DNA of 64,000 nucleotides. It comes from an uncultured Planctomycetaceae bacterium. GTDB taxonomy: Bacteria; Planctomycetota; Planctomycetia; Pirellulales; PALSA-1355. Both the position numbers and the translations under genes were made by a program. Each line of letters opens with the position of its first letter. Within the stretch, counting starts at the first letter, position 1. A model generated the notes under the pieces. That model saw only the letters and a list, made by a program, of their open reading frames with translations. It was not told the DNA's origin and made no database searches. This document shows, one piece after another, positions 24,881 through 64,000 of this stretch. The stretch spans positions 224,001 through 288,000 of the forward strand of contig CAWAUV010000005.1 in the NCBI GenBank assembly GCA_963785305.1. The letters run 5' to 3'.

Positions 24881-25006
24881 TTAAGACGTTTTGATCGCCG
24901 GCCGGCCGAACGACGCCTTGCGGCCTCGCGGGCTCGTGGTGTTTAATCGCGGCATTGCTTCATCGCGTTTAGGATGACTCGCGTCGAAAGGAATGAGGTG
25001 ACGTTC

Positions 25007-41462: not shown

Positions 41463-41587
41463 GCACCGAGCACGTGCTCGAAGGCTTCGTAATGCGCGTC
41501 GTTGCGGAATATCTTGGCCCGGGAAGTCGCTCGATTCAGGGCATGGTAGACGCCGCCAGCTTCGTCGGCTCGTGGTGGTTGTGGCAT
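41463..41587 (-). pseudogene. N-terminus of a RAYT/Y1 HUH transposase, truncated by IS66 (absent from the ORF track)
   Basis: My translation: MPQPPRADEAGGVYHALNRATSRAKIFRNDAHYEAFEHVLG, matching the MPRxxR..GxxYHxxNRG..IF..DYxxF start of REP-associated tyrosine transposases. Confidence 0.8.
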
Positions 41588-41594
41588 GGCCGCC

Positions 41595-41623
41595 AGCCTA
41601 CCAACAACCGCCAGCAAAATCAA
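41595..41623 (-). promoter_or_regulatory. Probable promoter of the RAYT-like gene; its -35 lies inside the 28-bp site
   Basis: TTGATT (41623-41618), 17 bp, TAGGCT (41600-41595) preceded by TGG, then 7 nt to the ATG (leaderless). Confidence 0.55.
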
Positions 41624-41628
41624 TGATT

Positions 41629-43564
41629 ATCGCGGTAGGGATGGCCCTTTCGGGCCACCCCCCGCACAGATCCGTACGTGCGGAACTACCGCATACGGCT
41701 CCTACCTTGGATACAAACGACCAAACCGCACTTCGGGATAAGGATGCAGGATTTTCGGGGTGGGAAGCCATCGTTTGCAAAGCTGCGAGAACTTCCGCCA
41801 GGTCATCCGGCGTCCGCGTTGGCTGCGTCGCCGCAGCATGCGGAGCCAGAGTTTCTGGAAGCGCCGTGCGGAATTGTTGCAATCGCACCGAGTTGCCGGG
41901 AATCGCATGGTAATTGAGCCATCCCCGGTAAACGCTCGATAGCCATGGCCCGACTTGCGCCAAGTCCATGTGCATTTTCCCGCGCAGCGCTTCTTTCAGT
42001 TCGCGCAGTTTGCCACGAAACTTCTTGGCCGATGAGATGCGGCGAATGGTGAATTCGCCCTTCCGGGTCACGCCACTGATGTGGGTGAAGCCCAGGAAGT
42101 CGAATGTCTCCGGTGGGCCATCGCCACGCTTCGATCGTCGTTCGGCCGCATAGCGTCCGAACTCGATCAGCCGCGTCTTCTCCGGGTGCGGTTCCAAACC
42201 GAATTTGGTGAAGCGTTCCCGGAGCGCCGCCAGGCAGCGTCGCGCGTCGGACTCCTCGCGGAATCCGACTACGAAATCGTCCGCATAGCGCACGATGATG
42301 ACCTCGCCCACGGCATGGCGTTTCCGCCACGCCACCAGCCACAGGTCCAGAACATAGTGCAAGAACACGTTCGAATAGAGCGGCGAAATCACCGCTCCTT
42401 GAGGTGTTCCCACGGTGCTCGGGGACCATTCGCCATCTTCCGACACTCCGGCTCGAAGCCATTTCTTCAGCAGCCGAAGCAGTCGTCGGTCGGCGATCCG
42501 ATGCTCCAGGAACTTCATCAACCATGCGTGGTCGATGTTGTCGAAGAAGCCGCGGATGTCCGCATCCAAAATCCAGTTCACTTTCCGCTTCTTGATGCCC
42601 ACGTAGAGCGCGTCCAAGGCTCGGTGACAGCTTCGTCCAGGACGAAAGCCGTAACTGAAACCCAGAAAGTCCTCTTCGTAGATGCACTCCAGGATCGTCC
42701 GTACGGCTTGCTGGACGATCTTGTCCTCCAGCGCCGCGATCCCGAGGGGCCGCGGCTTGCCGTCGAGCTTGGGAATCCAAGTTCGCTTGGACGGCCTGGC
42801 TCGATAGGCTCCCCGATGGATTCGACTGTGCGGATCGTCGATCCGCGTTTCGAAATCGGTGGCGTATTGAGCCCATGTCAGGCCATCGACGCCGGGCGCG
42901 GCTTGCTTCTTCAGGTCGAAGAAACTCGCCACCAGCAGTTCGGGCGTGACATGGTTCAGCAGATTGTTGAACCGCATCTTCTTGTCGCGTTGTGCCGCTT
43001 CTCGCACGCCCAGCAGTCCGCGCGGACCTGGGAGCCCGGCGTGTGTCCGGTCCAGTAGCGACTGCTCGGCGTTCTCCTCGGTCAGCTCCCTTCCCTCCAC
43101 GGGCTCCGCCGACAGCGGCACGCTGTCGTTGTTCGCCTGCTTCTTTGGTACTATGGAACTGTCTGACTCCCCGGGAACGTGCATGTCGGACTTGTGGCCT
43201 CGCGCCTTCTCCGACCGATCCGCTTCAAGCGAAGCGGATGTTCCCGGGATCTCCCGGCTTCCGCGAGAAAAGTTTCCGGCCGTGCGGGTGGTCCCGGACT
43301 CCGTGGGGGAGACGTCGGACTCGCCATGATCGTTCGACATCACTGTTGCCTTCCCGCATGAATCGAGCGACGGGGTCAGGACAAGGTCGGCCGCCACAAA
43401 AGAATGTTTTCGGAGCTCGATACACCGCCCGGCCGTGCCTCTGTGAACGCTTCGCCCTGCCAGTTGCCCGACACGACGCATCACTCGAGGCCGAGGTGGC
43501 TGGCTAGGCCTTGCCTCGTGCGACTCTTTCATTCGCGACTCTCCTCCGGCTTGTGCCGGCGCAC
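41629..43564 (-). mobile_element. Group II intron copy 1 (bacterial class E-like, IEP without endonuclease domain)
   Basis: 5' GTGCG; domain V/VI GGAGCCGTATGCGGTAGTTCCGCACGTACGGATCTGTGCGGGGGG...CCCTACCGCGAT; RT ORF inside. Confidence 0.95.
41702..43184 (-). CDS. ltrA: Group II intron reverse transcriptase/maturase (frameshift at about 41860)
   Basis: RPLGI, SYGFRPGR, DIRGFFD, GTPQG, RYADDF, FDFLGF; ends ILHPYP with no HNH domain. Confidence 0.9.
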
Positions 43565-43581
43565 CCTGACCCCTTTGAATT

Positions 43582-43705
43582 CGCCCGGTCTTGCCGGTGA
43601 TTTGCTTTTGCCGATTGTAGGTTTGCATGACTTGGTCGGAGCCGCTGACGCTGTCGGGATAGATCGTGGCGCTGAGCAAGCCGTTGCTGGCGATCGACGA
43701 TTGCG
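43582..43705 (-). pseudogene. Short Rhs core stub cut at site A
   Basis: SSIASNGLLSATIYPDSVSGSDQVMQTYNRQKQITGKT is homologous to about 60300-60420 of the large Rhs. Confidence 0.8.
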
Positions 43706-43723
43706 CTACTCCATGGCCACCGA

Positions 43724-44296
43724 TTAGTATCCAGGTTCCGTCGAAAGAAAGAGTCGAATTAGTCCAACTATCATCCAAAAACACACAGATAGATAAGTTA
43801 TGACATATAGTACGTCTGCGATGCTCAATCGGTATCCGTTATGAGTTTTGAAAGCGATTGCCAGACGCCGCCAAATCAAAGCAATCCAGACGCCGGATAC
43901 GATAAGCGAATACGACACGCAATCCGCTATGCATTCCTCACGATTAAACAAAATCCGTCGACCGGTGTTAAGGTCGAAGTTTATCGAGGCATAATGGCCG
44001 TGATAATGGCCAGAAAGTGTAATATGAAACGCCCAAACTATAATGAACCAAACGACAACAAGAACGAGCTTGTAAAAAAAACGAGATATCGAAACCGGCA
44101 CCGGCAGGAGGAGCAGCGAGATTCCAATCCCTGCATAAATTGGCCATGCGGCCAGCAGGTACCAGGGAGAATGCTTTACTCCGTTAACTACGTAGCTATT
44201 CGAATCAAATTGCCGCCATAGCTCTACCGGAATGAACGAAAGCGCAAAGACAAATGCCGATCGCACAACATCGTTGATAACGCGCTTGATCGACAT
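43724..44296 (-). CDS. Putative membrane immunity protein
   Basis: AT-rich, about five TM segments, directly downstream of an Rhs tip. Confidence 0.65.
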   Translation of the reverse strand: MSIKRVINDVVRSAFVFALSFIPVELWRQFDSNSYVVNGVKHSPWYLLAAWPIYAGIGISLLLLPVPVSISRFFYKLVLVVVWFIIVWAFHITLSGHYHGHYASINFDLNTGRRILFNREECIADCVSYSLIVSGVWIALIWRRLAIAFKTHNGYRLSIADVLYVITYLSVCFWMIVGLIRLFLSTEPGY

Positions 44297-44351
44297 TTCG
44301 TGACTCTGAATAGAACACGTTGGCGTTATCGAAGTCGACAGGAACATACGC

Positions 44352-46360
44352 TCATGGTTTATTGCAAACGACGCTGCAGACGTCTCGGCAGACCTGCCCT
44401 CCCGCAGCAAAAGCGACTTCGCAGGATTTTGCCCATGCCTTGTTCTTTAGTTTTCCGCAGATTTTTGCGGCCTGGCCCCCTTTATTGCATGCCGACAAGC
44501 ATGCCATAATTGAACAATTTCCGTAGAGCGCGCCGCCGTCTTCCACGGAAGTAAATCCAATTCCCATCGGTGGGAGCATTGGCGGGCATGGCGGGTTGTT
44601 TTTATACGATGGGCAGCGAGGGATAAATCCCAGCAACCAGTCAAGCGCCTGACAGCTCCGATCTGAGACCTCTTGATATGTATAAACTACGAGCTGACCC
44701 ATTGGTATGGATCTTAATGCGTCACACGTGATTACCTGCCTGACGGCCGATGCGTCATTTGTGCGCTTTATATCAGTGCACTTATAGACACAGTCAGTAC
44801 TACAGTTTCCGGACGGCTTCGATGAAGCCAGTGTAGTACAAGCGAAATCAACAAAACAGCCGAGCCCGCGACCATCGATGAGCGTTATTGGGTTATTGTT
44901 CACATAACGCGATACATTTGAATCGCCCGCAGCGAACATTAACGGGTCTCTCGTGATCCAGAGACCGAGCAGCGGATTCAAATACCGGTTCCGAACCTGA
45001 TACAGCCCCGATTCGCCGTCCCAGCGGTAGCCGCAGTAGAGGGTTTCCCAGGCGTAGTCGCTTCCGCCTGAGCGAACGGTGAAATCGGGGTTCAGGAATG
45101 TCGGCAGGCCATAAACCGTGTAGCTGTAGCGTTCCTGCACCATGCCCGATGTATTGACGATCGCCGTGACGTTCCAATTCGCGTCTTGCAGGGCGTAGAG
45201 GCGTTCGGTCGAGCGGTCCCGAAGGACCAGATCGTCGATGTAGCGTTGGCCCCAGACGAATTGGCGGTCGGCGGTCGTGGCGCCGCCGACGCGTTCTTCG
45301 TGGACTTGCCAATCGTTCGAGTAGTACAAGTCGCGAAGAACGCCGGAAATCGTCTTCGTCGCGCGACGGTTGAGGCCGTCGTAGCTGTATGTTGCCACGC
45401 CAATCAGTTGAGTCAAGCGGTTCCAAGCGTCGTAGACGCCGGTGAACGCCGACGAAGGAGATGCGGGCTGCGGGATCGCGGTCATCGCGCCGGTCGGGCT
45501 GTAGGCGGGCTGCGCCACGCGGCGCCGTAGCGCTGGGTGATGCCCATGATTTCGTTCACCGGATTACTCGACCGTTGCTGGTCGAGATTGTTCGCGGCGG
45601 TCACGACATCCGTGTTGACGAAGTTGGACCAATTGCCCGTGGCGTCGAGGCCCCATTGCTGGGCGAGGGTCATGTTCGCGATCGATTGGTTGCCACTATT
45701 GAGGTTGCCGCGGCTCATGTCGGTGAGGCGCTGCAGGCCGTCGTACGAATACAACTCATCGTTGCCGGCGGCGACGGCTTGATGGCGCCTGACACGGTTG
45801 CCGGCTTGGTCGTAGCCGTATTGGATTTGATCGAGCGTGGCGCTGGGCGTCGTCCAGGGGTTGTTGATCACTCGGCCGAACTGGTCGAGGCCGAGATACG
45901 GATTCGCGCCGGAGCCGCCGGCGAGCGACCAGGTGACGTTCGGCTGAGGATACGTCAGATCGACGAATGTCGAGAGGCCCAGATAGGTGTATTCAACCAG
46001 CGTCGTGCCGTCGGAATCGACGTAGCTCGTGACGCGGCTGAGGGCGTCGTCATTGCCGCTCGCATAGTTGTACGATACGACGCGGGGCGTCGTGCCGCTG
46101 ACGGCGCCGGGGTAGGTGATCGCCGTCAGGCGCGTTCGTGTTGGCGCTGCCGTCGGCGAAGGCGTACTGCACGTTGGGAGACGTGGCGGTGTTCACGGCG
46201 GCGCCATGCTGCTGATACTGCTTGACGAGTTGCTGGAAACCATTGTAGGCGTTTTGGATCTGATTTACCACTGTCGTACCGGCGGTGTCGGCGTAACTCG
46301 TAATTTGATTCACGAGCCCGCGAATTTCGTAGTTCGTGGTGATTCGCCGCACCCGCGTGG
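44352..46360 (-). pseudogene. Orphan Rhs (family A) core fragment with Cys-rich C-terminal tip (44352-44861)
   Basis: YD repeats; LYQVRNRYLNP..GLWITRDP...YVNNNPITLIDGRGL; homologous to 58398-60210; frameshifts at about 45515 and 46135. Confidence 0.9.
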
Positions 46361-46444
46361 CGGGGCTGCCGGCACTCGGACAGCTGAACGTCAGCAAAAA
46401 CTGCCCGCCGGGTCGAAAAACCGCCGCCAGCGAAATCAATGAGC

Positions 46445-48379
46445 ATCGCGGTAGGGATGGCCCTTTCGGGCCACCCCCCGCACAGATCCGTACGTGCGGA
46501 ACTACCGCATACGGCTCCTACCTTGGATACAAACGATCAAACCGCACTTCGGGATAAGGATGCAGGATTTTCGGGGTGGGAAGCCATCGTTTGCAAAGCT
46601 GCGAGAACTTCCGCCAGGTCATCCGGCGTCCGCGTTGGCTGCGTCGCCGCAGCATGCGGAGCCAGAGTTTCTGGAGCGCCGTGCGGAATTGTTGCAATCG
46701 CACCGAGTTGCCGGGAATCGCATGGTAATTGAGCCATCCCCGGTAAACGCTCGATAGCCATGGCCCGACTTGCGCCAAGTCCATGTGCATTTTCCCGCGC
46801 AGCGCTTCTTTCAGTTCGCGCAGTTTGCCACGAAACTTCTTGGCCGATGAGATGCGGCGAATGGTGAATTCGCCCTTCCGGGTCACGCCACTGATGTGGG
46901 TGAAGCCCAGGAAGTCGAATGTCTCCGGTGGGCCATCGCCACGCTTCGATCGTCGTTCGGCCGCATAGCGTCCGAACTCGATCAGCCGCGTCTTCTCCGG
47001 GTGCAGTTCCAAACCGAATTTGGTGAAGCGTTCCCGGAGCGCCGCCAGGCAGCGTCGCGCGTCGGACTCCTCGCGGAATCCGACTACGAAATCGTCCGCA
47101 TAGCGCACGATGATGACCTCGCCCACGGCATGGCGTTTCCGCCACGCCACCAGCCACAGGTCCAGAACATAGTGCAAGAACACGTTCGAATAGAGCGGCG
47201 AAATCACCGCTCCTTGAGGTGTTCCCATGGTGCTCGGGGACCATTCGCCATCTTCCGACACTCCGGCTCGAAGCCATTTCTTCAGCAGCCGAAGCAGTCG
47301 TCGGTCGGCGATCCGATGCTCCAGGAACTTCATCAACCATGCGTGGTCGATGTTGTCGAAGAAGCCGCGGATGTCCGCATCCAAAATCCAGTTCACTTTC
47401 CGCTTCTTGATGCCCACGTAGAGCGCGTCCAAGGCTCGGTGACAGCTTCGTCCAGGACGAAAGCCGTAACTGAAACCCAGAAAGTCCTCTTCGTAGATGC
47501 ACTCCAGGATCGTCCGTACGGCTTGCTGGACGATCTTGTCCTCCAGCGCCGCGATCCCGAGGGGCCGCGGCTTGCCGTCGAGCTTGGGAATCCAAGTTCG
47601 CTTGGACGGCCTGGCTCGATAAGCTCCCCGATGGATTCGACTGTGCAGATCGTCGATCCGCGTTTCGAAATCGGTGGCGTATTGAGCCCATGTCAGGCCA
47701 TCGACGCCGGGCGCGGCTTGCTTCTTCAGGTCGAAGAAACTCGCCACCAGCAGTTCGGGCGTGACATGGTTCAGCAGATTGTTGAACCGCATCTTCTTGT
47801 CGCGTTGTGCCGCTTCTCGCACGCCCAGCAGTCCGCGCGACCTGGGAGCCCGGCGCTGTGTCCGGTCCAGTAGCGACTGCTCGGCGTTCTCCTCGGTCAG
47901 CTCCCTTCCCTCCACGGGCTCCGCCGACAGCGGCACGCTGTCGTTGTTCGCCTGCTTCTTTGGTACTATGGAACTGTCTGACTCCCCGGGAACGTGCATG
48001 TCGGACTTGTGGCCTCGCGCCTTCTCCGACCGATCCGCTTCCGGTGAAACGGATGTTCCCGGGATCTCCCGGCTTCCGCGAGAAAAGTTTCCGGCCGTGC
48101 GGGTGGTCTCAGACTCCGTGGGGGAGACGTCGGACTCGCCATGATCGTTCGACATCACTGTTGCCTTCCCGCATGAATCGAGCGACGGGGTCAGGACAAG
48201 GTCGGCCGCCACAAAAGAATGTTTTCGGAGCTCGATACACCGCCCGGCCGTGCCTCTGTGAACGCTTCGCCCTGCCAGTTGCCCGACACGACGCATCACT
48301 CGAGGCCGAGGTGGCTGGCTAGGCCTTGCCTCGTGCGACTCTTTCATTCGCGACTCTCCTCCGGCTTCGCGCCGGCGAC
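46445..48379 (-). mobile_element. Group II intron copy 2
   Basis: Nearly identical to copy 1. The 5' end reads GTCG, with one G missing (possible sequencing error). Confidence 0.95.
46518..47999 (-). CDS. ltrA: Group II intron RT/maturase, intact
   Basis: Uninterrupted ORF MHVPGESD...RYADDF...ILHPYPEVRFDRLYPR; start codon is inferred. Confidence 0.9.
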   Translation of the reverse strand: MHVPGESDSSIVPKKQANNDSVPLSAEPVEGRELTEENAEQSLLDRTQRRAPRSRGLLGVREAAQRDKKMRFNNLLNHVTPELLVASFFDLKKQAAPGVDGLTWAQYATDFETRIDDLHSRIHRGAYRARPSKRTWIPKLDGKPRPLGIAALEDKIVQQAVRTILECIYEEDFLGFSYGFRPGRSCHRALDALYVGIKKRKVNWILDADIRGFFDNIDHAWLMKFLEHRIADRRLLRLLKKWLRAGVSEDGEWSPSTMGTPQGAVISPLYSNVFLHYVLDLWLVAWRKRHAVGEVIIVRYADDFVVGFREESDARRCLAALRERFTKFGLELHPEKTRLIEFGRYAAERRSKRGDGPPETFDFLGFTHISGVTRKGEFTIRRISSAKKFRGKLRELKEALRGKMHMDLAQVGPWLSSVYRGWLNYHAIPGNSVRLQQFRTALQKLWLRMLRRRSQRGRRMTWRKFSQLCKRWLPTPKILHPYPEVRFDRLYPR

Positions 48380-48468
48380 CCTGACCCCTTTGGATTGTCA
48401 GGAGCAGTCGGTGCGGCGAGCAATATGACGATGATGCTGACGCTTGGCTGACGCAATCGCACATTATT

Positions 48469-48987
48469 TCATTGTTGCCAGACAACTTCTTCATGCAGCG
48501 GCACGATCGCGGCATATTCACTACGGAAGATTGGAAGTTGCTCATTCAAAAACCAAACAAGGCCACCATAGGAGGACGCGTCCAGGCCGATCGATCCGCC
48601 GGTAGAAAAGTCAATTAGAAGCCCGCCGAGTTTCTTAGTATTGCCTTGCTCAAAGGTAGTCACTTTCGTAACCCTGGGGGGCGCGTCATCCAAATTCTTG
48701 CGATAGCAAACGTTCTCAAAAATTCGCATTAGTCCAGTGCGACAATCTGGATATTCCTTTCTGGCCCAAGCGGACCACTCGCTCAGTAACAATCGCTCAC
48801 ATGAAATATCTTCACTGCCAATAGGTTGGCGCAATACTACACAACTGTCATCGAAGCAGAAAATGACAGGGCCGCCTTCAAGCTTTGCCCATCGCTCCGT
48901 GGGATCATCGGACAATGCTTCAATTGCCATGTACACGTCGGTAATCGGTTGCTCTTTCAATGTCTCGATAAAAGTATTTATGCTCAT
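48469..48987 (-). CDS. Putative immunity protein for Rhs-B tip 1
   Basis: AT-rich; ATGA overlap with the toxin stop codon. Confidence 0.7.
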   Translation of the reverse strand: MSINTFIETLKEQPITDVYMAIEALSDDPTERWAKLEGGPVIFCFDDSCVVLRQPIGSEDISCERLLLSEWSAWARKEYPDCRTGLMRIFENVCYRKNLDDAPPRVTKVTTFEQGNTKKLGGLLIDFSTGGSIGLDASSYGGLVWFLNEQLPIFRSEYAAIVPLHEEVVWQQ

Positions 48988-50537
48988 GTTTTTGGCCTCA
49001 AACGCTGAATCATGTCGAACGTGCTACGTTGCACTGATATTAATGCGCCATCAGTGCCTCGGAGTAGAGTAAATCCGCCCCCTTCGAACACCTCAAAGAC
49101 TTGCCCTGGCCTAGCAGGGTCGAGATAGAGTCCTTTTGCCTTGAGCGTTCCATTCTGGATCTGTTGTTCCCAACCACGGAGCACAGCCGCCGTTCCTTCG
49201 GGCGTCTTAAGTTTGGTGTCAATCTTAGTTCCCGTGAGTTCTTCAAGAAACTGCTTCGCTCGTCCACCATGCGACTGCTGGTCAAAATTCTTGCTGGCTT
49301 TTAGGGTAACAGTGTTTGCCACATTACTTGGAGCATTCCCCTCCGCCGCGTTTACACCTGGGCTGGCGAGTTTATTTGGTGTCTCCGGACCGACGAGCGG
49401 ATCAAAGGCGGGGATCGTCCCTTTCGCGAAGCCCGATGCCATTATCAGCGCGTCGTCAAGGTTGCCGCGGCCTGATCGGGTGGGGTCGAGCATCAACGCC
49501 ATCGTGCCGACAACCGCGCCTTGCGATGCCAACACGTTCGCGTCGCGACGCATCCCCATCCGCGCGATCGATTTTCCATACTCCGCCGCAGCATTCCCGC
49601 CTTTAACATACACCGTATTCGGATTGTTTTCATAGGCCCGAACGAAACCGGCGCCGGCCTCATCGGGCGAAACCGCGACGATCGAGGGCTGAGTGCTCAA
49701 AAACGCCTTGTAATCCGCCGCCTTCTTCATCGCGCCTTGCAAAAACGCCGGCGCGGTCGGCGCCAAGCTAAGCACGCTCGGTGACGGATCAGTGCTGTAT
49801 CGTTCCGCGGGCGGCAGCGAATTGAACCAAGTGGTGAATTTTTCCTCGAAATCAAGCGATTGATTAATGTAGTCGGTCAGTTCCTTCGCTTGCTGCTCGC
49901 CGAATTCGCCCGGCGTGAGGATCGATAAATACTCGCGCCCGATTCGTTCCCATTCCGCGTTGAACCGCTCCTCGCGACTCGGAGCGTTCGCGTAGGGTTC
50001 CAACCCTTCGGGATCGACCTCGTTCGTCGGGCTGTTGCCGAACGCGCGGTAGGTGTTGACATCCGCTTGCGCCGGATCCGGCGTGTTCCAGGTTCCGCTC
50101 GACGGATCGTATACCCGGTTCACGGCGAAGTCGTCGCCGGTGGTGGCGTCGGTGAACAGGCCGTCGTAGCCGAAGGCGACGTCGACCGCCGCGGGATCGA
50201 GGGCCGTGTGGCTAACCGGCTGGCCGGCTGGCCGAAGGCGTTGTAGGTGATGTGGTCTTCGATCGCGCCGCTCGAATCGATCGTGTCGCGCACCGTGTTT
50301 TGGCCGTCGTCGAGCGTCCACAAGATGTTGCCGGGCGTGCTCGGGTCGGTGACTTGCTCGTCGGCCAAAAGCTGATCGACCGCGGGTCCCCACAAATAAC
50401 GATCGGTGAGATTCGCCGCGCTGGGCGCGGAGCGCTCGCGCCATCGCCGGTGGTCTGGAACTGGAACACGGCTTGGCGTCCGCCAGCGGAGCCGCTATCC
50501 GGCGGGTCGTCGAAGATAAAACGCTGTCTGCTCGCGA
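48984..50537 (-). pseudogene. Orphan Rhs (family B) fragment + conserved post-cleavage domain + variable tip 1 (48984-49327)
   Basis: RYLWGPAVDQLLADEQ, NRVYDPSSGTWNTPDP, GNSPTNEVDPEGL; duplicated at 61531-62732. Confidence 0.9.
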
Positions 50538-50559
50538 GTCAAACACCGGTTATCAGTTA

Positions 50560-50587
50560 AATCAATGACTCCTGACCCCTTTGGATT
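50560..50587 (-). repeat. 28-bp site C (intron-free)
   Basis: AATCCAAAGGGGTCAGGAGTCATTGATT, at the junction of the Rhs-B module and truncated hypD. Confidence 0.95.
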
Positions 50588-51440: not shown

Positions 51441-51456
51441 AAGAGCCTTCCATCCT

Positions 51457-52515: not shown

Positions 52516-52532
52516 CGAAAGCGGCGTGTGCC

Positions 52533-53728: not shown

Positions 53729-53745
53729 GGGCGAAAGGGGCGCGG

Positions 53746-56148
53746 ATGCGAGTATCGGCATCGGTCGACGATTCCTTCGCCCGCGATGCGCCCATCGCCC
53801 GGCGCGTTTCGATTCGCGGCGTGGTCCAGGGCGTGGGCTTTCGGCCTTTTGTCCATCGCGCGGCATGCGAGCATCGGATCGTGGGATGGGTCATCAACGA
53901 CCGCCGCGGTGTCGAGATTCATGCCGAAGGGTCACCCCACGCGGTCGCGGCCTTTATCGAAATCTTGAAGCAAAGCCCGCCGCCCGCCGCGCGCATTGCC
54001 TCGCTTGCCTGCGACGCCGCGCCGCTCGAGGGGTTCGTCGACTTCACGATTCGGGCGAGCGACGATCGTGGCCAGCCCACGGCTCGCGTGTCGCCCGATC
54101 TGGCCGTGTGCGAGGACTGCTTGCGGGAACTGTTCGATCCCAAGGATCGGCGGCAAGGCTACCCCTATTCGAATTGCACGCATTGCGGCCCGCGCTATTC
54201 GATCGTGTGCCGCTTGCCTTATGATCGGGCGAACACGACGCTTGCATCGTGGCCGCTGTGCGACGCCTGTCGCGCGGAATACGAAAATCCACTCGACCGC
54301 CGGTTTCATGCCCAACCCACGGCCTGCGCGGCTTGCGGCCCGGGATATGAACTGGTCGATTTCCAGAACCGGCCCTGGAAGAGCGGGGGTGATGAAACCG
54401 CCGTCGGGCGGATCGAACGGGCCAGTCTCGCGAGCAGCCGCGCGATCGCTCGCGCCGCCGAGCTTTTGCGCGGGGCGCCATCTTGGCGATCAAAGGCGTT
54501 GGTGGTTATCACTTGGCTTGCGACGCCGCCAATCGCGCCGCGATCATCGCGCTGCGAGAGCGCAAATTTCGCAAGGAAAAGCCGTTTGCGCTCATGGCCC
54601 GCGATCTCGCGGCGGCGCGAAGGATCGCGGCGCTCACGGCCGAGCACGAGCGCTTGCTGGTCGATCGGGCCAAGCCGATCGTGCTTGCTCCCTCCCGCGC
54701 AACCGCGGGCCGCGAGATCGTGTTCGACGCGATCTCGCCCGAGACCGACGACCTTGGCGTGATGCTACCCTACGCGCCGCTGCACTATTTGCTCTTCGCG
54801 GCCGGCGCTCCATCCGTGCTGGTGATGACCAGTGGCAATCGCTCCAGCGAACCGATCGCTTTCGACGATCTCGACGCGCGGGAGCGGCTTTCGGGCATCG
54901 CCGACGCCCTGCTTCGTGGCCAGCGACCCATCGCGCGGCGAGTTGAAGATTCGGTCGTCATGGTGCGCGACGGGCAAATGACCCTGGTTCGCCGCGCCCG
55001 GGGCTATGCGCCGGCGGCCGTTTGCCGGCTGGAGTCGGATCGACCCGTCCTCGCGCTCGGCGCCGATTTGAAAAGCGCCGTGGCGCTGGTGATCGATGGC
55101 GAGGCGCTCGTCGGTCCCCACTTGGGCGATTTGGATGATGCCGGCGCCTTCGCGGCCTTCGAACGCTCGGTGGCGGATTTGCTGGCAATGGCCGAACTGC
55201 GGCCCCAGGATTTGGTCGTGGCTCATGACATGCACCCGCAGTATCGCTCGAGTCGCCATGCCCGGGGACTCGCGGCGGCGCGGCTTGTGGCGGTGCAGCA
55301 CCATGAAGCGCATGTGGCGAGTGTGATGGCGGAGCATGGCCTGCTTGATGAGCGAGTGGTGGGGGTGGTATTCGATGGCGCGGGCTATGGCCGCGATGGC
55401 GCGATCTGGGGCGGCGAGTTCTTCGTCGGCAGCGTGAGCCGCGGCCTGGAACGCGTCGCATGGCTGCGGCCGACTCCGATGCCCGGCGGCGACGCCGCGG
55501 CTCGCTTTCCGGCTCAAGCCGCCGCCGGCTTCGTGGCCGATGCGGCCGCGTGCGCCGAATCGTGGCCGAGCGATTTACCATTGGCCGAAGCGATCGCCGG
55601 TCCGCCATTTGGCCTGCCGCGGCGCTTCGCCGACGCGCTGGCGATCGCCCGCAAACGAGTGCGATGTTTCCCCACAAGCTCCGTCGGCCGGCTATTCGAT
55701 GCCGTGGCGGCGCTGTTGGGGTTCACGCGGCCGATCAGTTTCGAAGGGCAAGCCGCGATCTGGCTCGAGCAGCGAGCCCGCGGCATCGGACCACAGTCTT
55801 CGTATCCCTTCTCGGAGCTCGACCCGCGACGGCTCGTGGCGGCCGTGGTTCGCGATCGGATCGCCGGGCGCGACGTCGGCGAAATCGCCGCGGCGTTTCA
55901 TCAAACACTTGCCCGCGGCGCGGCGAATCGCGCGGGATCTTTGTCGAAGCCATGGGACCCGAGTGGTGGCGGTCTCGGGCGGCGTGTGGCAAAACGAGTT
56001 GCTGTGGAGGGCGTTTATGGAGTACTTCGCCGACGATCGAGAGATTTCCATTATTGCGAACCAGAGTGTCCCCTTGGGCGATGGCGGCATCGCCTTGGGT
56101 CAGGCCGCCCTGGCGGCCGCCAGCCTCCGCGCGACCGACACGACATGA
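53746..56148 (+). CDS. hypF: HypF carbamoyltransferase (frameshifts at about 54475 and 55915)
   Basis: GVVQGVGFRPFV, CxxC zinc fingers, RRFHAQP, KGVGGYHL, QHHEAH, SGGVWQN, DGGIALGQ. Confidence 0.95.
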
Positions 56149-56327
56149 TTGCGCTTACACATGTCGAGAAGTGCGAAATGCGTTTGAAAGAGCCAACGTG
56201 AACGACGACGGAGCAAGAGAGGTCGGCTCGACGATCCGCGGCAGAGGCTCGAAATCACCTTTGGTGGTGGTTTTTAACGTGCTCGCGAAGAGGCGGGAGC
56301 ATTCGGCTCGGGTTTTGCAAAACGTGG

Positions 56328-57864
56328 GTAACTGTTAAGCATTTCCTCTTTCCCGAAATTGGGTTTTCGGTCACATTGATTGGATCATGGATGATCGAGA
56401 TCGACGGATCGCCGAGTTGGAAGCGGAAATCGCCCGGTTGCAGGCGGAGAACGGAACGCTGCGCAAGCGCGTCGAGCAACTCGAACAGCAAGTCCAAAAG
56501 TTTTTGCAGCGGCGCAAGAAAACCCGCTCGGCCAGCGATGCGCGGCGTGGCGAACAGGATCGCCGCCGCAAGCAGTTTCGCAAACATCCGGGCAGCTTTC
56601 GTCCAGGGCCGCCGCCCGGCACGGTATTCATCGAACACGATGTGCATCCGCGAGAGTGTCCGCACTGTGGCGGCCGCGATCTGACCGCCACCGGCGAGTT
56701 CGAAGACCATGAGATGGCGGAGATTCCAGAGCCCAAGCTCGAATGGCATCGGTATCGCCGTCATACCTATCGTTGTGAACATTGCCAAGCCACCTGCCAA
56801 GGACGCGGCGACTTGGAACTGCCCGGCGCCCACATCGGGCCACGCGCGCGCTTGTTGGTCTGCTACGCGCGGGTTCACCTGGGCATCTCGCTCGGCAAAA
56901 CGCAACACTTGCTGAAAGACTTCTTTGGTCTTTCGGCCAGCCGGGCCGGATTGCTCGGCCATTTGCGTTGGGGCGGCGCTTTGTTCGAGCCGGTGGTCGA
57001 CAAACTCTGGGAACTCTTGCGCAATTCGCCGGTCGTGCAAGGCGATGAGACCGGCTGGCGGATCGATGGCCAGCCCGTTTGGGCCTGGTGTTTTCGAGAC
57101 ACGCGCTTGGCATTGTTCCTGATCGATCGTCATCGCAATCGGGCCGTGCTCGAGCGAGCGTTGGGCACATCGTTCGCGGGCACGCTGGTCAGCGATTTTT
57201 ATGCGGTCTACAACCGGCTCGACTGCCGCAAACAGCGCTGCTTGGTCCATTTGCTTCGCGAGTTGCACAAGCTGCGCGAGACGTTGCCGGCGGCGAGCGT
57301 GCGGGCCTTCATCCAGCCGTTGATCACGCTGTTTCAAGACGCGATCCGGTTGGGCCACGAGCGCAAGTCGCTCGGCAAAAAAGCTTTCAACGCGGCCCGA
57401 CACGAGATTCAAAACCGTTTCGACACGTTGATGCTCGAGACGCGCGTGCGGCATCGCGAATGTTTGCGAATCTGGCGGCGGCTGTTCAAGCACTCGGACG
57501 AATTGTTCACCTTCCTCGACGATGCGAATGTTCCGGCCGACAACAACGGAACCGAACGCGACATCCGAAGCCTGGCGGCGGCGAGGAATGATGGCGGCAC
57601 GCATCGGACCGAATGGAGCGCGGCGGCGTTCGCCCGAATCAAGAGCGTGATCGCGACCGGCGCGAAAAACGGTTTGAGCTTCGCAAGGTATGGAATCGAA
57701 GTCGTGCGCGCTAAATTGCAAGGCAAGACCCTGCCGCTGCCGATCACCAATAGCAGTTAAAACATCCGCCACGCGACCCATCCCCGGAAACCCCTCGCCC
57801 GCGATCCCCGCCAATATCGCCACCGCCCCCCCGCGCCCAGGCCACGCCACGGCTTAACAGTTAC
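56328..57864 (+). mobile_element. IS66-family element, single-ORF type, full length (1537 bp)
   Basis: 13-bp TIR GTAACTGTTAAGC; no target duplication visible. Confidence 0.9.
56387..57760 (+). CDS. IS66 transposase (TnpC-like)
   Basis: Coiled-coil N-terminus, CPHCG zinc finger, DETGW, LVSDFY, QRCLVHLLR, NNGTERDIR. Confidence 0.95.
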   Translation: MDDRDRRIAELEAEIARLQAENGTLRKRVEQLEQQVQKFLQRRKKTRSASDARRGEQDRRRKQFRKHPGSFRPGPPPGTVFIEHDVHPRECPHCGGRDLTATGEFEDHEMAEIPEPKLEWHRYRRHTYRCEHCQATCQGRGDLELPGAHIGPRARLLVCYARVHLGISLGKTQHLLKDFFGLSASRAGLLGHLRWGGALFEPVVDKLWELLRNSPVVQGDETGWRIDGQPVWAWCFRDTRLALFLIDRHRNRAVLERALGTSFAGTLVSDFYAVYNRLDCRKQRCLVHLLRELHKLRETLPAASVRAFIQPLITLFQDAIRLGHERKSLGKKAFNAARHEIQNRFDTLMLETRVRHRECLRIWRRLFKHSDELFTFLDDANVPADNNGTERDIRSLAAARNDGGTHRTEWSAAAFARIKSVIATGAKNGLSFARYGIEVVRAKLQGKTLPLPITNSS

Positions 57865-58160
57865 ATTTCAACGATCTCATCGAATCCATGCGGCTTTATA
57901 GTTTCGGAAACTAGACATGACAAATACGTAACACAAAGCATCACCACAAATAAACGATAAACGATTGAACCGACCCCCAATACGCCCCAGCATCCTATCA
58001 ATGCGATCTGTGCGTAGGTTATCCCATCTGCGACAAAGTCTTCGTCGCTGCCGGTGCAATCGGCGATCCGAACAACCACAAGACTTCCCAGGACGTGGAT
58101 TGTCGCAAGGCCGGCCATGACCACACAAGGCTTGGAGCACGAATGTAAAAACGACGTATT
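57865..58160 (-). pseudogene. Putative membrane immunity gene truncated by IS66
   Basis: AT-rich hydrophobic frame (AQIALIGCWGVLG) running into the IS end; start uncertain. Confidence 0.5.
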
Positions 58161-58397
58161 GCGTCGCTGCGTTTCATATGATTCGTCTGATTGTCGACTT
58201 TCGCCGACTACGATTCGCCGATGCATTGTACGTACGCCGCTTTCTACAAAACGACCAAGTTGTACGCGTCTGCAATGCATACAACATGTACTAGCATCGA
58301 TTGTTGTTGCATCTCAAACCGCACGTGTGAGGATGCCGTAAAGTGTTACGAATAAGCAATGCGCAAGCTGCTGATGGGCTACATCGAAGTGGCCTGA

Positions 58398-61300
58398 TTA
58401 TGCGCACGTGCCTTTGCATGTGCAATCGACGAGGTACCACAATGAAATATATAGCGAGTGTTCTCTGCACATATATGTGCATTCGCATGGGTCGCAATGA
58501 CCGGAGCGGGCCTCATCGTAGTAATGTTCCCAAATAGAATAGCCGCACCAATACCACACTACTTGCTTGACGTAATACGTGCATGAGCATGGCCTTTCCC
58601 ATACATATGTGTTGCCTCTATCGGCGCGCTTGCAATATGGCATTCCGTCCACCGTGTGTGGGGGATTGTCGTTCGGTGGCGAAACCTTAGATGTCGTGCC
58701 GTTCGGGTCGGTGTTTTTGGCGATAGCGTTTCCTAGGTATCGATACAGATTCCGGTCTCCACCATCATACCCGATCGGATCTCGCGTGATCCAAACGCCG
58801 TGCGCCGGATTCAAATATCGATTCCGCGCCAGATACAGCCCCGTTTCGACGTCCCAGCGGTAGCCGCAGTAGAGGGTTTCCCAGGCGTACGCGGAGCCGC
58901 TAGCGCGAACCGTGAAGTCGGGATTCAGGAATGTCGGCAAGCCATAGGCGGTGTACTGGTAGCGTTCTTCGACGGCGCCGGATGTATTGACGATCGCCGT
59001 GACGTTCCAGTTCGCGTCTTGCAGAGCGTAAAGCCTTTCCGTCGAGCGGTCGCGCAAGACCAGATCGTCGATGTAGCGTTGGCCCCACACGAATTGACGA
59101 TCGGCGGTCGTCGCGCCGCCGACGCGTTCTTCGAGGACTTGCCACATGTTCGAGTAGTACAAGTCGCGCACGATGCCGGCGACCAGTTTGGTTGTGCGGC
59201 GATTGAGGCCGTCATAGCTGTAGGCGGCCACGCCGGCGAGCGAGATCAAGCGGTTCCAGGCGTCATAGGTTGCGGCGAAAGAGCTTGCGGGCGATGCCGG
59301 TTGTGGAATTGCGGTCATGGCGCCGGTCGGACTGTAACTCGGCTGCGCCCATGCGGCGCCGTAGCGCTGGGCAATGCCCATGATCTCGTTGACTGGATTC
59401 GACACGCGCTGCTGGTCGAGGTTATTCGCGGAAGTCACGACATCCGTGTTGACGAAATTCGACCAGTTGCCCGTTGCGTCCAGGCCCCATTGCTGGGCAA
59501 GAGTCATGTTCGCGATGGACTGGTTATTATTCGTGAGGGCGCCGCGGCTCATGTCGGTGAGGCGCTGCATGCCGTCGTAGCTATACAGCTCATCGAACTT
59601 GGCGCCAAGCGAATCAGCCACGACGTTTTGCCGCCAGACGCGGTTGCTCGATTGGTCGTAGCCGTATTGGATTTGATCGAGCGTGGCGGTGGGCGTGGTC
59701 CAGGGGTTATTAATAACACGGCCAAACTGGTCGAGGCCGAGATAGGGATTCGTGCCGAAGCCGGAGCCGCCGGCTAGCGACCAGGTGACGTCCGGCTGCG
59801 GATACGTTAGATCGACGAATGTCGAGAGGCCGAGGTAGGTGTACTCGACGAGCGTCGTGCTGTCGGAATCGCGGTAGTTGGTGATGCGGGATAACGCATC
59901 GTCGTTGCCGCTCGCGTAATTGTACGAAACGACGCGAGGCGTCGAGCCGCTGATCGCGCCGGGATAGGTGATCGCCGTGAGGCGCGTCGTGTTGGCGCTG
60001 CCGTCGGCGAAGGCGTATTGCACATTGGCCGACGTGGCGGTGTTCACGGCGGCGCCATGCTGCTGGTACTGCGTGACGAGTTGCTGAAAGCCATTGTAGG
60101 CGTTTTGGACTTGATTGACCACCGTCGTCGCGCCGATGTCGGCGTAGCTCGTGATTTGGAAGACCAATCCGCGGATTTCGTAGGCGGTGCTGATCCGCTG
60201 CACGCTCGAATCGACGCTCGCGCCGAGCGTCGTAATGATGTCGTCCGTGGGGCGGCCGAGCAGGTCGAACAGGTACTCATGCACCGTGCCGTTTTGGTCC
60301 GTCTTGCCGGTGACTTGCTTTTGTCGATTGAAGGTTTGCGTGACTTGGTCGGAGCCGGACAAGCTATCGGGATAGATCGTGGCGCTAAGCAATTCGTTAC
60401 TGGCGATCGAGGAATCGGTCAAGGTCGTGCCGTAAACGAACTGCGTCGTTTGGTTGCCGGTGGTTGGATTCACCGCCGTCAAGGCGATCATGTTGCCGTC
60501 GGCGTTGTAGGCGAACTGGACCGTGACGTCGGTGGCGTTGCCGGGGCAGCCGCCGGTGTAGTTGCTCACCGTGCTGAGCGGCTTGTGCAAGGCGTTGAAT
60601 GTTTGCAGCGTGATGATGCCGGCGGGATCGGTGGTTTGATTGAGATTGCCGGCGTTGTCGTAGGCGAAGCTCCTGACCAAGACGGTTGGCGAGGAAGCTG
60701 GCGGCGTGGCGGGGGCGGTGAAGGCGGCGTTGCCATTCGTGCCGTAGTTGGCCGAGGCCGCCATGCGGCCAATGCCGTCGGGGAAGTTCGCGACATAACT
60801 TACGCGGGCCAAGGGCTGCGTTCCGCTATACGGTGGATTCAAGACGCCCGAGCTGGTGGCGCTGTCGAACTGCTGGTACGAATCGACTTCGATCACGTTG
60901 TTCGCGTCGTCGTACGTGGTCAGCGTCTGCTCGAAGATGATGTTTTGGCTCGTGACTTGGCCGACGTCGCTGTAAGGCTCCGTTCCCGAGCCGGTGTAAT
61001 AACCTTGATACGACGCCGTGACTCGGGCTTGGCTATCGTATACCTGCTTGGTGAATGTCTGGGCTCCTGCCGGCAAAGTCTTGATGATGTTGCTCGCCAG
61101 ATCGTACCAAGTATTGTCGACGAGCGAGTTGCCCAAGGCGCCGGTGTTCGGGTCCACCGAATAGACTTGCGTTTGATAGACCCGATTGCGGTCGTCCCAG
61201 AAGGTGAGCGTTCGCGCGAGAAGCTGACCGTTCGCGGTGGTGTTGAGGCGGTCGACTTGGATGATCCGATCGAGATTGTCGTAGGTCGTCTCCAGATAGT

Positions 61301-61480
61301 ATTCGAGCTCGCCGTCGATGCCGATTTGCCTATCTCGGAAGTCGTAGATGTAGCTGGTCACGCGGTCGTTCTCGCCGGTGGCGTCGACGAACGCGGTCTT
61401 TTCGGTGAGGTTGCCGTCGCCGCCCGACGAACCGCCGTCGTATACGTTGCCGGTGACTTGGACCATGTTGTTCCCCGAAC
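58398..61480 (-). pseudogene. Large Rhs (family A) protein, 5'-truncated at site D, with Cys-rich tip (58398-58694)
   Basis: About 1030 codons of YD repeats; LYLARNRYLNP..GVWITRDPIG...NTDPNGT; the frame begins abruptly at the site. Confidence 0.9.
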
Positions 61481-61508
61481 AATCCAAAGGGGTCAGGAGT
61501 CATTGATT
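61481..61508 (+). repeat. 28-bp site D (intron-free)
   Basis: GAAC|AATCCAAAGGGGTCAGGAGTCATTGATT. Confidence 0.95.
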
Positions 61509-61530
61509 TAACTGATAACCGGTGTTTGAC

Positions 61531-63058
61531 TCGCGAGCAGACAGCGTTTTATCTTCGACGACCCGGCGGACAGCGGCTCCGCTGGCGGTGGCCAGGCCGT
61601 CTTGCAGTTCCAAACCACCGGCGATGGCGCGAGCGCTCCCACGCCGACCGCGGCGAACCTCACCGATCGTTATTTGTGGGGACCCGCGGTCGATCAGCTT
61701 TTGGCCGACGAGCAAGTCACCGACCCGAGCACGCCCGGCAACATCTTGTGGACACTCGACGACGGCCAAAACACGGTCCGCGACACGGTCGATTCAAGCG
61801 GCGCGATTCAAGACCACATCACTACAACGCCTTCGGCCAACCGGTCAGCCACACGGCCCTCGATCCCGCGGCGGTCGACGTCGCCTTCGGCTACGACGGC
61901 CTGTTCACCGACGCCACCACCGGCGACGACTTCGCCGTGAATCGGGTGTACGATCCATCGAGCGGGACCTGGAACACGCCGGATCCGGCGCAAGCGGATG
62001 TCAACACCTACCGCGCGTTCGGCAACAGCCCGACGAACGAGGTCGATCCCGAAGGGCTGGAACCCTACGCGAACGCTCCGAGTCGCGAGGAGCGGTTCAA
62101 CGCGGAATGGGAACGAATCGGGCGCGAGTATTTATCGATCCTCACGCCGGGCGAATTCGGCGAGCAGCAAGCGAAGGAACTGACCGACTACATTAATCAA
62201 TCGCTTGATTTCGAGGCAAAATTCACCACTTGGTTCAATTCGCTGCCGCCCGCGGAACGATACAGCACTGATCCGTCACCGAGCGTGCTTAGCTTGGCGC
62301 CGACCGCGCCGGCGTTTTTGCAAGGCGCGATGAAGAAGGCGGCGGATTACAAGGCGTTTTTGAGCACTCAGCCCTCGATCGTCGCGGTTTCGCCCGATGA
62401 GGCCGACGCCGGCTTCGTTCGGGCCTATGAAAACAATCCGAATACGGTGTATGTTAAAGGCGGGAATGCTGCGGCGGAGTATGGAAAATCGATCGCGCGG
62501 ATGGGGATGCGTCGCGACGCGAACGTGTTGGCATCGCAAGGCGCGGTTGTCGGCACGATGGCGTTGATGCTCGACCCCACCCGATCAGGCCGCGGCAACC
62601 TTGACGACGCGCTGATAATGGCATCGGGCTTCGCGAAAGGGACGATCCCCGCCTTTGATCCGCTCGTCGGTCCGGAGACACCAAATAAACTCGCCAGCCC
62701 AGGTGTAAACGCGGCGGAGGGGAATGCTCCAAAGAGTGGACCTGTCGCAGGTGGCGGCGCGAGCCTTGAACGTGGCCTTGGAAACATGTCGGCAGCGGAA
62801 ATTTCGCGAATTCAAAACGCAGCGAATCGCATTGATAAGCCCATAAGCGTCGTTGGAAGCCGCTCGGGCGGTGCGAAACTTCCACGGCCGGACTCCGACT
62901 GGGATTTCGTGATCGAAGCGAATAACAAAGTGAGAGCTAGCGCGTCTCGGTCGCTTCCGGGAGCAAAATCTGTAACAAATAACCTTGACTGGAACCAAGA
63001 CGTTTTCAAGGGGCCGCTCGATCCCGCCCACCCACACATAACGTTCTTCCCGGAGTAG
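61531..63058 (+). pseudogene. Orphan Rhs (family B) fragment + conserved domain + variable tip 2 (62733-63058, nucleotidyltransferase-like)
   Basis: Near-identical to 49328-50537 up to ...GVNAAEGNAP; the tip contains VVGSR...PDSDWDFVI. Confidence 0.9.
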
Positions 63059-63061
63059 ACG

Positions 63062-63337
63062 ATGCGAGAAACGACAGTCGAATTATTGAACGACGAGGGT
63101 AATGGTGCGGTCCTTAAATTGCCGGGTCGCGCATTTCCTGGGATACTGATTCAAGGCGACACGCTTCAGATTCTGATCGACGACTTAGAGGAACTGCTCG
63201 ATTTGCTTGGCGCTGAGGCACTAGAGGAACCGCGTGAATCACTTGATGGCATTATTGAGCGTCTCAAAGGATATCGAACTCGCTACGTTGAGGCGCTGAA
63301 AAACCACGGGATTTCTGTGCCGTTTTCGAGCCGTTAG
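63062..63337 (+). CDS. Putative immunity protein (resembles DUF6959)
   Basis: 91 aa, 3 nt after the toxin stop; AVLKLPGRAFPGILIQGDTL. Family assigned from memory, not by search. Confidence 0.65.
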   Translation: MRETTVELLNDEGNGAVLKLPGRAFPGILIQGDTLQILIDDLEELLDLLGAEALEEPRESLDGIIERLKGYRTRYVEALKNHGISVPFSSR

Positions 63338-63616
63338 CTTTTAACTCCAAAACCTGCAAGACGCTGGGCTCTGGCGCGCCCGGCGCGAGTGGTGAATTGC
63401 GAGATTGTGGTGGGTCTTGCGATGACACGTGGGATCCCAGACATCCACGTTGTCGCTGGCCGCGTTCTGCTCAGCAACGCGGGGGCCTACGATCGGCGGG
63501 GCGCTCACCGACGCAGGCATCTACGCTAAATGAAGCGTTCAGCGGGCGTTACATCGCCGCCAAGCGTCGCTAGCGGAATTTCGTCGCCACTCGAATTTCT
63601 GGATGTCTGGGATCGG

Positions 63617-63775
63617 CTCCTGACACGGACGTCGGCTGGGTCGACAATGAAGTCACCGGCGAGGAACTGAGCGCCAACTCGTACTCGGAGGTCAGCGTCT
63701 CGTCGCAGGACGGCACGGTCACGACGGCGCCGGATTCCGGCTCCTATTCGGCGGAAATCGACGTCTCGAACGAAC
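63617..63775 (+). pseudogene. Coding-like fragment (Ser/Thr/acidic) cut at site E
   Basis: Frame APDTDVGWVDNEVTGEELSANSYSEVSVSSQDGTVTTAPDSGSYSAEIDVSNE, with host-like codon usage, ends at GAAC|site. Confidence 0.4.
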
Positions 63776-63792
63776 AATCCAAAGGGGTCAGG
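63776..63792 (+). repeat. 28-bp site E, 5' half (intron 3 inserted)
   Basis: GAAC|AATCCAAAGGGGTCAGG^GTGCG. Confidence 0.9.
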
Positions 63793-64000
63793 GTGCGCCG
63801 GCGCGAAGCCGGAGGAGAGTCGCGAATGAAAGAGTCGCACGAGGCAAGGCCTAGCCAGCCACCTCGGCCTCGATTGATGCGTCGTGTCGGGCAACTGGCA
63901 GGGCGAAGCGTTCACAGAGGCACGGCCGGGCGGTGTATCGAGCTCCGAAAACATTCTTTTGTGGCGGCCGACCTTGTCCTGACCCCGTCGCTCGATTCAT
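63793..64000 (+). mobile_element. Group II intron copy 3 (5' end; runs off the window)
   Basis: GTGCGCCGGCGCGAAGCCGGAGGAGAG..., near-identical to the 5' ends of copies 1 and 2. Confidence 0.95.

Follow-up and report, generated by a model that had tools for sequence, protein, structure and literature searches.

Group II introns are known to home into other mobile DNA, including the inverted repeat of an insertion sequence (IS). In the parts of the literature cited here, RmInt1 of Sinorhizobium meliloti, a class D intron without an endonuclease, homes into ISRm2011-2 (PMC1802570, PMC4615759), and RmInt2 is listed in the inverted repeat of ISRm17 (Table S1, PMC3552965). Introns of class IIC use an intron-binding site 1 (IBS1) of only 3-4 bp, have no exon-binding site 2 (EBS2) and need an upstream hairpin (PMC7923331). 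At repetitive extragenic palindromes (REPs), two of nine copies of a Pseudomonas putida KT2440 group II intron were reported (Tobes and Pareja 2006, PMC1525189), and enterobacterial introns fill from 2 to 100% of their potential homing sites (Leclercq and Cordaux 2012, PMC3522654). Here we describe a group II intron found in a stretch of 64,000 nucleotides (nt) from an uncultured Planctomycetaceae bacterium (G000:C5:224001-288000, hereafter the window), most of whose copies lie at one nucleotide of the end repeat of a REP-associated tyrosine transposase (RAYT) element. We consider it very probable that this endonuclease-less intron retrohomes into the repeat by sequence guidance.

The intron resembles RmInt1 and RmInt2, as far as these are covered by the sources above, in having a protein limited to reverse transcriptase (RT) and maturase domains, a IIB-like ribozyme, many copies, and a target in a multicopy IS found by pairing of exon- and intron-binding sites. 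It differs from them in its target, which is the end repeat of an element with a RAYT (a Y1 HUH transposase) instead of the gene or the inverted repeat of a DDE-type IS, and in that most copies have an enlarged loop at exon-binding site 1 (EBS1) with 9 nt of complementarity. With the KT2440 intron and with REP-targeting IS elements it shares insertion into repetitive extragenic palindromes; in contrast to that intron, 16 of its 21 copies lie in a full site at one nucleotide and carry a guide sequence that matches. As for the enterobacterial introns, part of a large set of potential homing sites is filled, but those introns belong to other lineages, and their targets are IS genes, intergenic sites and terminators and not RAYT ends. 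In a literature search whose coverage excluded most subscription journals, no intron with a specialisation for REP or RAYT ends was found to have been published, and the accessible part of bioRxiv 10.64898/2026.09.22.753630 contains no relevant mention. What appears to be new here is an intron lineage tuned to RAYT/HUH end repeats.

The intron, its protein and its copies

The window belongs to an assembly of 6.42 Mb in 9 contigs that is 84.7% complete. The sequence AAAGGGGTCAGG occurs in it five times, against 0.16 occurrences expected by chance and with five reached in 0 of 100 shuffles (43565-43576, 48380-48391 and 50571-50582 on the minus strand, 61486-61497 and 63781-63792 on the plus strand). 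Three of these occurrences are followed by an intron. Copy A (41629-43564, minus strand, 1936 nt), a long-EBS1-loop variant delimited from the Rfam models RF02005 and RF00029, the sequence and the table of copies, and copy B (46445-48379, minus strand, 1935 nt) are complete; copy E (63793-64000, plus strand) runs out of the window and has its full length in the assembly at C5:287793-289727. RF02005 (group II domains I-IV, gathering score 49) was matched with 145-150 bits over the full model length in A and B and with 92.9 bits in E, where the window end cuts the match, and RF00029 (domains V/VI) with 42.3 bits against a cutoff of 40 in the two complete copies.

Each copy is preceded by a 5' half-site, located at 43565-43581 for A (minus strand, AATTCAAAGGGGTCAGG), at 48380-48396 for B (minus strand, AATCCAAAGGGGTCAGG) and at 63776-63792 for E (plus strand), and the 3' halves of A and B lie at 41617-41628 and 46433-46444. 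The boundaries read ...GGTCAGG/GTGCGCC...CGCGAT/NNTCATTGATTT, where the oblique strokes mark the junctions. Directly after ...GGTCAGG the intron begins with GTGCGCC in A and E and with GTCGCC, one base short, in B; after the 3' end ...CGCGAT, AATCATTGATTT follows in A and GCTCATTGATTT in B. Removal of the intron rebuilds the sequence ...AAAGGGGTCAGG/AGTCATTGATTT of the two empty sites, C (50559-50590, minus strand, AACAATCCAAAGGGGTCAGG/AGTCATTGATTT) and D (61478-61509, plus strand). The initial annotation of this DNA had placed three introns at a single nucleotide of a site filled in three of five cases, and had stated that the flanks of the complete introns restore the empty sites; its coordinates proved exact, with AAAGGGGTCAGG before each intron, and the sequence at the A and B junctions agrees.

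The intron-encoded protein, located in domain IV, is best seen in copy B, where its reading frame is intact (46518-47792, minus strand, 424 aa from MRFNN); in copy A the frame is shifted near the C-terminus. The protein matches the NCBIfam model TIGR04416 (group_II_RT_mat) with 354 bits against a cutoff of 300 and contains an RT domain (RVT_1, E 1.6e-41) followed by a weak maturase match (GIIM, 17 bits against a 23-bit cutoff). No HNH family was matched at E values up to 1 and the protein ends about 30 residues past the GIIM match, in agreement with the earlier description of a protein without an endonuclease domain and as in the intron classes A, C, D, E and F. Its identity is 59.5% to the protein of a Burkholderia plasmid intron, 52.8% to that of a Klebsiella IncL/M plasmid intron, 41% to that of an S. 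meliloti plasmid intron and 34% to that of E.c.I9, a class D intron in Table S1 of PMC3552965. That table, as far as it is available, covers class D introns only, a term search of the accessible supplements of the same article returned no Planctomycetes or Klebsiella entry, and the class of Kl.pn.I5 is not stated in the available text of PMC3522654. The RF02005 model also matches the S. meliloti, Klebsiella and Burkholderia introns, so the match does not discriminate between classes. Without its open reading frame (ORF) the ribozyme measures about 660 nt, a value within the 450-700 nt given for IIE and IIF introns in the consulted part of PMC3753933. The intron may belong to class E, as supposed in the initial annotation.

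A BLAST search of the assembly with copy B as the query identified 21 full-length copies with 98.3-100% identity on 5 contigs, and 4 further fragments that retain the intron 5' end. GTGCG, which fits the 5' boundary GUGYG of group II introns, starts 20 of the 21 copies, GTCGC being found only in copy B, and CGCGAT, in accordance with the 3' boundary AY, ends all 21; the protein frame reaches its normal C-terminus in 15. Both half-sites flank 16 copies, while one has the 5' half only, two have the 3' half only and two have neither. The 5' exon matches GGGGTCAGG at 9/9 positions in 17 copies, 8/9 in three and 7/9 in one, and the two copies in sites lacking both repeat halves (C1:127728 and C8:244608) nevertheless follow an IBS1 match. 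The initial annotation, which would have lost its fixed target had copies been found in unrelated sequences, therefore stands in the main: 16 of the 21 occupy the full site and the other five come after an IBS1-like 5' exon. Retrohoming introns commonly show such a distribution, with ectopic insertions as rare exceptions, and the 21 near-identical sequences suggest that the intron is active or was so recently.

It could be argued that the shared insertion point is not real and that repeats were mis-joined during assembly. This is a draft assembly of long contigs with frameshifts in several housekeeping genes, but the 21 copies on 5 contigs have 20 distinct upstream flanks, the empty site is reconstructed precisely, and the same type of junction is found in relatives from other genomes, so that we regard an artefact as hardly credible. 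The frameshifts may affect how the sequence is read at the level of single bases: many housekeeping genes are frameshifted or split and the assembly is a draft, and such details as the 5' end of copy B and the frameshifts in the intron protein may accordingly be sequencing errors. In the window, hypF (53338-56201), a peptidase S46 gene (24974-27134) and a methyltransferase gene (2966-3984) each consist of two overlapping frames, being either pseudogenes or the result of assembly indel errors.

Some loci contain more than one intron sequence. At C7:1629234-1631836 the first 649 nt of an intron precede another 5' half-site, behind which a full intron lies. Within C5:295266-295330, at 37 nt past the copy C5:293347-295265, GGAGGGGTCAGG and then GCGCCGCGGCCGAAGCCGGG are found, which resemble a second, degenerate intron 5' end. 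Tandem introns were also observed in some relatives (L007, L010 and L057), the 3' end of one intron abutting the 5' end of the next.

Guide sequences and choice of target

The sequence assigned to EBS1, CCUGACCCC, is located at 43372-43380 (minus strand) in copy A, 48187-48195 (minus strand) in copy B and 63978-63986 (plus strand) in copy E. In the alignment to the Rfam model this 9-mer falls in the terminal loop of the hairpin GCCGAC...GGAAGGC. Its DNA counterpart CCTGACCCC occurs eight times in the window against 0.32 expected, three times within the introns and five times as the complement of the sites. The loop was then compared with the exons of relatives, using 80 loci that encode related proteins and more loci from related genomes, in which the intron 5' ends and the loop were mapped. 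In 19 of 24 non-redundant introns, most of which have unrelated targets, the loop pairs at all six positions (G-U allowed) with the last six bases of its own 5' exon; when exons were shuffled among the introns, 2.15 introns on average, and never more than 7 in 2000 trials, reached full pairing. Because loop and exon covary in the relatives, far above the level of the shuffles, the loop can be identified as EBS1. The position of CCUGACCCC in the EBS1 loop, expected in the initial annotation, is thus borne out by the model alignment and by covariation, single-sequence folding of domain I being uninformative (z 0.36).

In the relatives the EBS1 loop has 9 nt. An insertion of 16 nt in the loop, present in 18 of the 21 copies, extends the complementarity from 6 to 9 nt (from CCUGAC to CCUGACCCC), and the short loop of the relatives is retained in three copies, two of which occupy the same type of site. 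A candidate EBS2, CUUUUG, was tentatively placed in the single-stranded stretch just 5' of the EBS1 hairpin (43397-43402 and 48212-48217 on the minus strand in A and B, 63956-63961 on the plus strand in E). Judged by complementarity, it could pair, and probably does pair, with CAAAGG at positions -13 to -8 of the exon. Two relatives fit such a pairing, L091 (CCUUUU with AAAAGG) and L037 (CCUUC with GAAGG).

The genome contains about 70 copies of the repeat. With up to one mismatch, AAGGGGTCAGGNNTCATTG is present 49 times against 0 in the control and 0-2 times in each of 40 related genomes, so that among these 41 genomes the exact repeat is amplified in this one only. REP-type sites with G at position -9 are filled in 20 of 54 cases, these 20 filled GGGGTCAGG-type sites comprising 17 full-length copies and 3 fragments, whereas occupancy is zero both for the 13 REP-type sites that have C or A at this position and for the 11 GGGGTCAGG 9-mers outside the repeat. 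Fisher's test gave p = 0.007 for the sites with G at -9 against those with C or A and p = 0.014 against the 9-mers outside the repeat (0.027 and 0.051 after copies with shared flanks were collapsed), values that overstate the case since the sites are related and not fully independent. From these contrasts, both position -9 and sequence beyond the 9-mer appear to matter. A pairing of about 13 nt between RNA and DNA would be enough to explain the specificity, and the occupancy fits it.

The following mechanism is proposed. The excised intron RNA, with its IIB-like ribozyme of the RF02005 type, would find the top strand of the repeat by base pairing and would reverse-splice exactly after ...GGTCAGG. 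EBS1 (CCUGAC, or CCUGACCCC in most copies) would pair with the last 6-9 bases of the exon, and EBS2 (CUUUUG) probably with the CAAAGG just upstream of them. Priming of the cDNA may take place at replication forks, as has been established for introns that, like RmInt1, lack an endonuclease. All contigs have a flat and noisy GC skew, so that leading and lagging strands are not assignable here.

The target repeat as a RAYT-type element end

The site is the terminal inverted repeat, about 30 nt long and REP-like, of an element with a RAYT-type Y1 HUH transposase. Transposase genes of this type were identified in the genome by Pfam Y1_Tnp (protein E 8e-14), and the best and only NCBIfam match of the transposase is NF047646 (REP_Tyr_transpos), with 49 bits against an 80-bit cutoff. 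One full RAYT, with the HUH and Tyr motifs, has the site upstream on its own strand and inverted copies downstream. At the loci of RAYTs and their remnants found by tblastn, an empty upstream site precedes the gene start by about 42 nt (33-51 nt), a filled one by the same distance plus the length of the intron, and at most loci an inverted site is found 150-230 nt beyond the truncated end of the remnant. The Y1_Tnp matches, the inverted flanking sites and the fixed distance to the start together support what the initial annotation had supposed, namely a RAYT/REP-type end. In the window, the first ~41 codons of a RAYT (MPQPPRADEAGGVYHALNRA...) begin 42 nt past site A (41465-41587, minus strand) and are followed by an IS66-family fragment.

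Most members of the element family are internally deleted. Since RAYT remnants accompany many copies of the repeat, the behaviour of the elements is closer to that of an IS family or a family of miniature inverted-repeat transposable elements than to that of classical REPs with a single RAYT. The repeat also bounds units without a RAYT, such as the Rhs toxin-tip modules described below. At least 12 sites have a tandem duplication of the 5' half ending GGGGTCA(G), next to the insertion point (e.g. C7:1443708, C7:1387405, C8:348198 and C7:1881659), and one RAYT right end consists of three tandem 28-nt units (C7:1442902-1442958); these tandem repeats may have been left behind when the transposase cleaved and joined DNA. 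Of the IS66-family element itself, the assembly contains more than 25 copies, two of them in the window (40310-41051 and 56328-57865), and one breaks the RAYT remnant downstream of intron A.

It is important to ask whether the intron recognises the sequence of the repeat or its structure. Class C introns, which insert behind terminator hairpins or, in the case of IIC-attC, into the attC sites of integrons, likewise lack an endonuclease, occupy a fixed position with respect to a stem-loop, and exploit recombination sites that are repeated, may fold and delimit gene cassettes. By analogy, the folded hairpin of the repeat could be recognised as single-stranded DNA, perhaps exposed or nicked by the RAYT HUH enzyme. 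The variants of the site next to a RAYT indeed form a hairpin, albeit an imperfect one (about -6.5 kcal/mol, z about -4), with a compensatory change in one variant, and the insertion point is the 3' edge of its loop; the tandem duplications of the 5' half adjoin the same point and may mark a cleavage site, and the intron protein without an endonuclease would suit such a route. However, sites of the AACAATCC subtype do not fold (0 to -1.3 kcal/mol) and yet make up 9 of the 20 filled sites. The empty sites C and D of the window are of this subtype and have z values above 0, no better than shuffles. Moreover, EBS1 spans 6-9 nt, against the 3-4 nt of IIC introns in the available portion of PMC7923331, the RNA matches RF02005 like the other IIB-like introns tested, and the ectopic copies lack any repeat. 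We therefore consider homing directed by structure quite unlikely. Given the non-folding subtype among the filled sites, the common denominator of the sites is sequence and not structure, and the earlier statement that insertion splits the hairpin applies to the RAYT-proximal subtype but neither to the empty sites of the window nor to those 9 filled sites.

Close relatives of the intron protein (74-85% identity) are present in other Planctomycetaceae. Some of the relatives lie behind a similar motif that their EBS1 matches, as in L007 and L013 (GTCAGG), L037 (GGAGTCAGG), L088 (GGGTCAGA) and L091 (GGTGTCAGG), and in L063 and L086 the motif is GGGGTCGGG and the EBS1 pairing passes through G-U. 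Others, such as the Schlesneria copy L009, differ in both target and EBS1. Two related genomes, G020 (73 occurrences against 9 in the control) and G043 (57 against 17), are enriched in the motif AARGGKGTCRGR, and at several of their loci it precedes a Y1_Tnp gene by no more than about 100 nt. At L059, a RAYT homologue follows the end of an intron with 55% protein identity at a distance of about 100 nt; among the loci searched by tblastn with the RAYT of this genome, L059 is the only one where a RAYT homologue lies near a related intron, and in G022 and G043 no Y1_Tnp gene adjoins the known intron copies among the matches listed. The homologue at L059 (L059:2943-3947) is fused to a DnaA C-terminal-like domain. 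Judged by these motifs, the link between this intron group and the RAYT-end motif seems older than the genus, the sites of relatives being identified as RAYT ends in L059 only.

A more far-reaching proposal would have the intron lineage depend obligately, as a hyper-parasite, on a single RAYT family throughout Planctomycetota, with an EBS1 that tracks the end motif AAAGG[G/T]GTC[A/G]G[G/A], reverse-splicing into the single strand exposed or nicked by the HUH enzyme at GGTCAG/G, and control of the mobility of RAYT and Rhs cassettes by splitting of the end. We regard this as unlikely. The initial annotation had suggested in a similar vein that HUH-generated single strands might be used and that insertion might lock or fuse neighbouring cassettes.

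Rhs modules, duplications and the origin of the copies

The genes following the empty sites were found to belong to Rhs modules. An ORF of 520 aa lies after site C (48984-50546, minus strand) and a paralogue of 510 aa after site D (61526-63058, plus strand); both match NCBIfam TIGR03696, the Rhs-associated core domain, which is followed by about 330 residues. Since these ORFs carry the core domain and a C-terminal part, the units, the cassettes of the initial annotation, are Rhs core-tip/toxin modules and not integron-like. Further Rhs core-tip ORFs with variable C-terminal domains are located at 58398-61487 and 43724-45518 (both minus strand), and small ORFs downstream of Rhs modules at 48469-48987 and 63062-63337. 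From their arrangement, the Rhs ORFs and small ORFs look like orphan toxin/immunity modules, each behind a repeat in the same orientation. Coding of the Rhs DPxGL motif by the site, on the opposite strand, was also considered and rejected: at site D this frame does not agree with that of the Rhs ORF, and it has stop codons at its sides.

Two segmental duplications terminate exactly at sites C and D. The segment 50592-57865 of the window, 7.3 kb with hypD', hypE, hypF and IS66, is an inverted copy of C5:67779-75051 (99.5% identity), and 56328-61477, 5.1 kb with IS66 and an Rhs gene, is a copy of C7:1640773-1645921 (99.96% identity). The truncated hypD at site C was accordingly rejected as a case of insertion into a live gene, as it is the edge of the inverted duplicate and an intact hypD exists elsewhere. 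The repeat thus seems to serve as a junction at which segments recombine or are captured. In addition, the inverted copies C7:29202-31136 (minus strand) and C7:232323-234257 (plus strand) have complementary chimeric flanks, one with the 3' half only and the other with the 5' half only, which suggests an inversion of about 200 kb by recombination between introns.

These observations bear on the question of how many of the copies arose by homing. The intron could have entered the repeat once or a few times and then been carried along, most copies arising by duplication or transposition of RAYT elements, Rhs cassettes or larger segments. Duplications ending exactly at the sites would agree with this, as would the chimeric pair on one contig (C7:31136 and C7:232323), which looks like recombination between introns. 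Shared flanks point the same way, and they are the first of several observations that weigh against sequence-guided homing of the copies. Copies A, E, C7:227062 and C7:29202 have a RAYT-remnant::IS66 composite in common as their 3' flank (96-100% identity across 408 nt or more), and wherever this composite occurs in the assembly it carries the intron; C9:266664 and C9:493480 share 600 nt of flank at 99.8%, and C5:293347 and C9:489925 share a 5' flank. The effect of position -9 could reflect a repeat subfamily and not pairing. The relatives L007 and L013 do not fit the proposed EBS2 pairing, and the search for EBS2 found no strong or convincing complement in the intron to exon positions -10 to -20. 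Finally, splicing and homing are themselves inferred from the sequence, and single-base details of the copies may be errors of a 9-contig, 84.7%-complete assembly.

The flanks as a whole nevertheless argue for many separate insertions. Beyond position -20, the upstream flanks of the 21 copies form 20 clusters, and the downstream flanks form 12. The introns are 98-100% identical and yet lie in four 5' subtypes and several unrelated 3' families, C1:127728 and C8:244608 have no repeat halves but do have an IBS1 match, and REP-type sites mismatched at -9 are never filled. In the window, A, B and E each have a 5' flank of their own, as expected from the independent insertions claimed in the initial annotation. 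For A and E the claim is doubtful, as the 3' flank of copy E, outside the window, agrees with that of A at 96% of positions over 418 nt. The four copies with the composite flank may derive from one homing event followed by duplication or recombination. When groups with shared flanks are collapsed, at least a dozen separate events into the site remain, and we find it rather improbable that passive spread accounts for most of the copies.

Sequence-guided retrohoming, which we prefer, means that the intron lives on the ends of another mobile element, a target that is plentiful, mostly non-coding and self-spreading. The genome amounts to a natural experiment, with about 70 near-identical targets, one-base variants that are never used, and two variants of the guide loop with 6 or 9 nt of complementarity in 3 and 18 copies, respectively. 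Owing to these target and loop variants, it can be tested directly in this genome how the intron chooses its targets and whether the RAYT element gains or loses by it. As the repeat bounds Rhs modules and marks duplication junctions, the intron and repeat copies together are likely to drive rearrangement in this genome.

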